Shown: piece after piece, positions 1 through 353 of the stretch | Position numbering within the stretch: the stretch's first letter is position 1 | Layout of the letters: the number at the start of each line of letters is the position of its first letter | Assembly: GCF_003334385.1 (NCBI RefSeq) | Contig: NZ_QOWN01000195.1 | Length of the DNA: 353 nt | Source of the DNA: Escherichia coli | GTDB taxonomy: Bacteria > Pseudomonadota > Gammaproteobacteria > Enterobacterales > Enterobacteriaceae | Reading direction: 5' to 3' (one strand) | Program-made: the position numbers and the translations under genes | The notes under the pieces: model-generated | The model's input: the letters and a program-made list of their open reading frames with translations, nothing else | What the model was told of the DNA's origin: nothing | Database searches by the model: none

Positions 1-353
1 TGGTCACCCACGTACTGGGAGACAATCACCGGCAGCCCCTGGAAGGAGCCACCCAGCAGGGTCATGTCCGGGTATTCCTTCTGACCCAGCGCATTTTTAC
101 GCATGGACAGTGCCAGGGCATTGGTGCTGGACATCAGCCAGACCGCACCGGTGGGCTGCAGGTTTGCTGCCACAAACTGTCCAAACGCAGCCTCTGCATC
201 CGCATCCGGGTTACCGGTTGATGCCGTGCCCTTCACATCATGGGTGATGGACGCCGGGGAGACATCTGCCACTGCGGCTTTTTTCGGGTCCACAAAGTCT
301 GTATCCAGACGCGCCACCACCGCTTCCGCCAGCGCATTACGGACCAGTGCATC
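1..353 (-). CDS. Internal fragment of a phage major capsid protein, HK97-like fold (partial at both ends; N-terminus lies beyond position 353, C-terminus beyond position 1)
   Basis: Seen in sequence: the reverse complement read from position 353 downward (first codon 353-351 GAT, last complete codon 5-3 GAC, positions 2-1 begin the next codon) gives 117 codons with no stop: DALVRNALAEAVVARLDTDFVDPKKAAVADVSPASITHDVKGTASTGNPDADAEAAFGQFVAANLQPTGAVWLMSSTNALALSMRKNALGQKEYPDMTLLGGSFQGLPVIVSQYVGD. Plus-strand frames have stops at 82-84 (TGA), about 217-219 (TGA) and about 248-250 (TGA). Codon usage is biased in the enterobacterial manner. Product call is from established knowledge plus recollection, not a search: the segment ...TLLGGSFQGLPVIVS... 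resembles the conserved C-terminal core of HK97-family major capsid proteins (HK97 gp5 has ...GLPVV... in an equivalent position, and family members typically show ...LLGxPVxxS...), and the preceding G-x-V-x-L ... N-x-G spacing is similar. Confidence that this is a real CDS is about 0.9; the figure given is for the capsid product call. Confidence 0.6.

Follow-up and report, generated by a model that had tools for sequence, protein, structure and literature searches.

A perfect tandem hexamer in the capsid gene of Stx-converting phages is probably incidental to the coding of a helix start

A perfect tandem duplication of six bases in a phage capsid gene of Escherichia coli is, very probably, incidental to the ordinary coding of the start of a capsid helix, and is neither a product of replication slippage nor a site of variable length. 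The duplication lies in a stretch of 353 nucleotides, called the window throughout, which means the whole of the DNA analysed. The evidence comes from the identity of the gene, chance statistics, the absence of copy-number alleles among relatives, variation by substitution only, an invariant Asp, and a helix present in two structural models. The result matters little in practice: it removes a speculative lead, and the gene was already known.

The gene and its protein

On its minus strand the window is part of the gene for the major capsid protein of Stx-converting lambdoid phages, which has the HK97 fold and is fused to a prohead protease and a scaffold. The minus-strand frame is open over the entire window (117 codons), and the window's ORFs on the plus strand are short and unsupported. 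In nucleotide sequence it matches Escherichia phage vB_EcoS-569R3 at 100%, and the 'major head protein' genes of JLK-2012 and phage 2851 at 99.7%. About 90 Stx1a-, Stx2a- and Stx2c-converting phages, including 2851, JLK-2012, YYZ-2008 and BP-4795, match it at 93.8-99.7%, and in the matching phage records it lies inside a gene annotated 'major head protein/prohead protease'. The window fragment is matched by PHROG 617, major head protein (E = 4.4e-37). TIGR01554, the profile of the HK97-type major capsid protein, scores 78.1 bits (E = 6.8e-22) against a cut-off of 27.5. On the full protein, PF05065 (Phage_capsid) covers aa 386-635 with E = 7e-14 and PF04586, which marks a Peptidase_S78 domain, covers aa 48-152; a coiled-coil, scaffold-like stretch lies between these two domains. 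The AlphaFold model of the C-terminal 353 residues has a mean pLDDT of 78.6 and a pTM of 0.77. Compared with the PDB by Foldseek, this model of the capsid domain retrieved the Bxb1 capsid at 5e-13 and HK97 Head II/1OHG at about 1.6e-9, both with probability 1.00. A capsid protein had already been proposed by the first-pass annotation of the window, and the identity to phage DNA, PHROG 617, TIGR01554, PF05065 and the Foldseek matches all support it.

The JLK-2012 gene has a product of 645 aa and is placed between the terminase and portal genes; its neighbours, the small and large terminase subunits, portal, head-tail adaptor and head closure, make up a head-morphogenesis module. In the canonical order of HK97 and lambda, the capsid gene follows the portal gene. 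The RefSeq record of JLK-2012 also carries two adjacent, overlapping CDSs of 1,224 and 1,353 nt (L001:943-3515, minus strand), each named 'portal protein'. The full capsid gene occupies L001:3739-5676 on the minus strand, where the S78 protease, the coiled-coil scaffold-like part and the capsid domain share one frame. The ATG at L001:5100-5098 encodes an internal Met193 (MNIGEQIKSFENKRAAL...), with AAGGA 10 nt upstream. Homologs about 80% identical, such as P0015, are called as 455 aa from exactly this Met193, without the protease, and others, such as P0019, are fused. The arrangement suggests that nested in-frame expression might yield the capsid protein by itself as well as the fusion, which would recall lambda C/Nu3.

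The gene is an already annotated and very common prophage gene, and the window is ordinary coding sequence. Among 5,426 complete E. coli genomes, 1,249 carry the fragment, with up to 7 copies per genome and 2,924 places in all. Six of these places are on plasmids. Several matches share the record coordinates 3049-3401, which indicates chromosomes whose numbering begins within this prophage.

The repeat and its chance expectation

The perfect repeat described in the first-pass annotation, together with its coding on the minus strand, its frame and its peptide, was confirmed from the sequence and the open frame. The coordinates are collected in Table 1. The period of six runs one base further, to position 208, for 13 nt in total. 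The five residues encoded are Pro490-Asp491-Ala492-Asp493-Ala494 of the full protein, or P198-A202 of the 353-aa capsid domain, in the context TASTGNPDADAEAAFG. The repeat in the DNA is offset by one base from the codon frame. It therefore needs the same third base (G) in the codons of Pro and of the first Ala, as well as identical Asp codons.

Table 1. Features of the window, with positions counted from its first nucleotide
Feature	Positions	Strand	Remarks
Internal fragment of the capsid-fusion gene, aa 442-558 of 645	1..353	-	Open frame, nucleotide identity, profile matches
12-nt repeat gcatcc gcatcc (gcatccgcatcc)	196..207	+	Coding strand reads G-GAT-GC twice
Codons CCG GAT GCG GAT GCA, P-D-A-D-A	195..209	-	CCG 209-207, GAT 206-204, GCG 203-201, GAT 200-198, GCA 197-195
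Codon of the second Asp, D493 of the protein, D201 of the domain	198..200	-	Asp in 103/103 homologs, entropy 0
C-terminal part of the P-domain 'spine' helix, domain residues 150-170 of helix 147-170	291..353	-	Predicted, AlphaFold model
Irregular segment from the spine helix to the A-domain helix, domain residues 171-197	210..290	-	DSSP mostly coil
Predicted 14-residue alpha-helix PDADAEAAFGQFVA	168..209	-	First A-domain helix after the spine helix

The 12-nt repeat stands at chance level and is statistically unremarkable. Tandem Repeats Finder reported no repeat in the window even at a minimum score of 30, and a general repeat finder returned only short chance families, with none at 196-207 and no inverted repeat there. 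Among 5,000 shuffles of the window that preserved its dinucleotides, a perfect duplication of period 6 arose in 9.7%, and one of any period from 6 to 12 in 12.9%. At the protein level, shuffling the 117-aa fragment produced a repeat of the form XYXY in 36% of cases. The full protein holds five of them (GNGN270, DADA, ALAL, LVLV560 and AVAV630), where 2.6 are expected (P = 0.14). The window itself contains a second one, ALAL, at positions 108-119 of the minus strand (window aa 79-82, protein 520-523); it is encoded by gcc ctg gca ctg, with no nucleotide repeat. Once the peptide P-D-A-D-A-E is given, the gene's own codon usage yields a perfect 12-nt repeat of period 6 with a probability of 0.27. 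This expectation agrees with the distant loci that have P-D-A-D-A, of which 4 of 15 (27%) show the perfect hexamer repeat.

Copy number and variation among relatives

The first-pass annotation had suggested that the duplication arose by slippage and that related phages would differ at this site by copies of two residues. IMG/VR was searched with degenerate exact patterns for the one-, two- and three-copy forms. At least 120 contigs carried two copies, and none carried one or three. In the complete E. coli genomes (2,924 copies in the 1,249 genomes with the gene), a 35-mer query for the three-copy form matched nothing; this megablast query may miss backgrounds substituted in the 11-nt left flank, which the degenerate IMG/VR pattern covers. 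A 55-mer query for the one-copy form aligned at 2,720 E. coli places, all with a 6-nt gap, the best at 90.2% identity over a span of 61 nt and none at 95% or more. All 60 of the full-length E. coli matches sampled span exactly 353 nt, as do all the listed phage matches, including that of Salmonella phage FSL SP-016, which is 75.6% identical.

The same constancy is found in the proteins. The segment that runs from a conserved Gly to a conserved Phe is 11 residues long in all 208 related loci, down to about 78% protein identity. Across these loci the repeat site reads P-D-[A/D/T/E]-D-[A/S] and differs by point substitution only. Loci L009-L128 are biased towards the repeat, which was part of the pattern used to choose them; loci L129-L208, chosen by protein motifs from other parts of the gene, are free of this bias. 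Close variants include GAT ACG GAT GCG (PDTDA) and GAT GCG GAT ACA (PDADT), and Salmonella phage FSL SP-016 has GAT GAC GAC GCG, with no repeat. The synonymous positions of CCG/GAT/GCG/GAT are invariant in the sampled haplotypes of E. coli phages, which have diverged by only about 5%, so that this invariance is uninformative. There are relatives that retain the peptide and have lost the nucleotide repeat, which indicates that conservation follows the protein. The site thus varies by substitution and not by indel. With equal length in 208 of 208 loci and no allele of one or three copies, the proposal of slippage and two-residue copy-number variation is not supported, and the length of the segment is strictly conserved in close homologs, which the first-pass annotation had itself named among the refuting outcomes.

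Structure around the repeat

Two AlphaFold monomer models were compared, that of the window's protein and that of a long-form homolog, P0083 (mean pLDDT 80.8). DSSP on the former assigns a helix to residues 198-211, from Pro198 to Ala211, in a block with pLDDT of about 89-93. In the models, P-D-A-D-A forms no loop but opens the first A-domain alpha-helix as its initial turn. The surface loop envisaged in the first-pass annotation is accordingly not borne out, since both models place the residues in the first helical turn and the second Asp is present throughout the homologs. The buried strand, which it had named as another refuting outcome, is not seen in the models either.

Helix-capping statistics favour Asn, Thr or Asp as the cap, Pro at N1, and acidic residues in the first turn. 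The Asn that precedes Pro198 would be a likely N-cap, with Pro at N1 and acidic residues next, and this capping rationale could account for the composition of the segment.

Residue constraint in homologs

A MAFFT alignment of 103 near-full-length homologs, 54-100% identical, gives the constraint on each residue of the site. The second Asp, which is also an invariant column (D205) in alignment A4, stands among highly variable neighbours, with entropies of 2.2-2.7 bits. At the position of the first Asp, most relatives have Arg. The first Ala position is variable (A/T/L/D), and the second is mostly occupied by Val or Ile. The two 'copies' of the repeat are therefore not equivalent, since the invariant residue is found in the second only. 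As read from the alignment, D-A-D-A appears only where a change of Arg to Asp and one of Val or Ile to Ala flank the conserved A-D pair.

The invariance of D493 likely reflects a structural contact or a capping role in the A-domain helix. Being absolutely conserved and four positions into this helix, Asp493 is a reasonable target for mutagenesis of capsid assembly.

Length difference at the helix N-terminus

At the junction 209/210, after N197 and before Pro198, indels are more frequent than anywhere else inside the domain; of the 103 homologs, 78% carry an insertion. The spacing between the conserved Gly and the invariant Asp falls into three classes. It is 5 in 23 homologs, which are 65-100% identical to the window's protein, 9 in 68 homologs (54-61% identity) and 10 in 12 homologs (55-59% identity), and a spacing of 3 or 7 occurs in none of the 103. 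The length of the segment is thus constant within the clade of 65-100% identity, and a difference of 4-5 residues lies just N-terminal to it in the homologs of 54-61% identity. The spacing classes track clade membership, which points to rare and ancient events. In the model of P0083 the helix runs from 199 to 215, with 17 residues as compared with 14 in the window's protein, and its C-terminal end is equivalent. By this comparison of models, the short and long forms differ by about one turn at the N-terminus of the helix plus one loop residue. The idea of a length-variable site in the first-pass annotation holds in part: the family has its indels mainly at the adjoining junction, but the changes are clade-defining blocks of 4-5 residues and never steps of two.

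The long forms have a D-A-D-A of their own. It follows directly on the conserved Gly in 32 of 80 long forms (P0083, P0100, P0106 and P0109, for example), in the consensus G-T-D-A-D-A-[VI]-R-x-D, and lies within the extra turn that is missing from the window's clade. The presence of D-A-D-A in both short and long forms is read here as convergence on a favourable helix start. A broader idea, that the helix N-terminus is a recurrent one-turn length switch at which a D-A-D-A start is re-created independently as a convergent motif, is unlikely. Such a switch could tune contacts between subunits or with a decoration protein, and in that case the window would owe its D-A-D-A to structural convergence and not purely to coincidence.

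Interpretation and rival explanations

In the preferred reading, selection would act on the peptide, foremost on its invariant second Asp, and the first Ala would be freely substitutable by Asp, Thr or Glu. The D-A-D-A peptide would arise in lineages that have Ala at that position and in which Asp replaces the Arg of most relatives, and a perfect hexamer repeat in the DNA would result only where the synonymous third positions coincide. One rival is slipped-strand mispairing, by which one ancestral GGATGC (Asp-Ala) would have become two, within a surface loop able to accommodate length changes of two residues between related phages. The repeat is indeed perfect and tandem, and indels of the family fall mainly at the position next to it. 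Against this stand the absence of alleles with one or three copies both in IMG/VR and in about 2,900 E. coli copies, and the equal length of the segment in the 208 loci and in protein homologs down to 65% identity, with spacings of 3 or 7 never seen. Relatives with PDDDA, PDTDA and PDEDA are of equal length, which indicates that the repeat was reached by point substitution. The invariant residue sits in one putative copy and not in the other, and the residues are helical in both models. Taken together, these observations make slippage very improbable. A very old slippage event, later fixed and constrained, may be compatible with the comparative data alone.

The D-A-D-A of the window might instead be homologous to that of the long forms, as an ancient helix-start motif after which the short forms lost the following turn. 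The consensus of the long forms, the start of the helix inside DADA in the long-form model as well, and the inherent ambiguity of gap placement in this region are in keeping with such a history. The alignment, however, would need two gaps and would strip the short forms of a counterpart to the Asp that is invariant in 103 of 103 homologs. MAFFT sets P-D-A-D-A over [VI]-R-A-D-[IV], which keeps both the invariant Asp and the A-D pair, and two residues after the Gly the short forms have Pro instead of Asp. Homology of the two motifs is thus quite improbable. It is exceedingly improbable that the hexamer pair is an element of DNA or RNA, such as a protein-binding site, a regulatory RNA or tandem type IIS sites (GGATG/GCATC) under selection. 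Nothing but the repeat itself speaks for such an element, and GGATG occurs twice by construction. No Rfam match was found on either strand at E up to 1, the promoter and terminator scans of the window were empty, and the site has no inverted repeat. A function of the tandem GGATG at the DNA level was rejected, since the DNA repeat has gone from relatives in which the peptide persists.

If the hexamer is incidental to coding, as preferred here, the site is not a hypervariable or slippage-prone part of the capsid that could be used for strain typing, peptide display or antigenic variation in Stx phages. The N-terminus of the helix is where this capsid family tolerates a length change of one turn between clades.

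Comparison with known systems

The capsid of HK97 offers the nearest structural comparison. Its gp5 has a helix starting from T253-R-A-D256 (PDB 1OHG, against which the gp5 sequence was verified), within the same order of elements: spine helix, irregular segment, helix, strand and short helix. The best co-linear pairing sets T-G-N-P-D-A-D over T-G-D-T-R-A-D, with a spacing of 5 between Gly and Asp in both. The two capsid domains are about 14% identical in the Foldseek alignment. The Smith-Waterman alignment with gp5 is co-linear and in a plausible register but not significant (P of about 0.25-0.30), and hhalign of the family profile against gp5 gave a probability of 0.1%, which is not significant either. 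The residue-level match to the gp5 helix is therefore suggestive, as a lead only. When the protein and the family profile were each searched against PDB sequences, the matches were the Bxb1 and cf-PICI capsids, in alignments that miss the P-D-A-D-A site.

The repeat resembles the slippage-prone repeats of contingency loci in being a perfect, in-frame tandem of a 6-nt unit. It differs from them in that the window has two copies only, with no copy-number polymorphism in thousands of copies and an occurrence at the level of chance. Proteins of NCBIfam NF045541, the fusion of prohead protease and major capsid protein, have an analogous architecture, with S78 protease and MCP in one ORF; the window's protein scores 54 bits against the cut-off of 525 and is not a member of that family. 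The 'major head protein/prohead protease' of the Stx phages 2851, JLK-2012, BP-4795 and YYZ-2008, with DNA identities of 97.5-100% between the window and the annotated genes, is the same gene, without difference.
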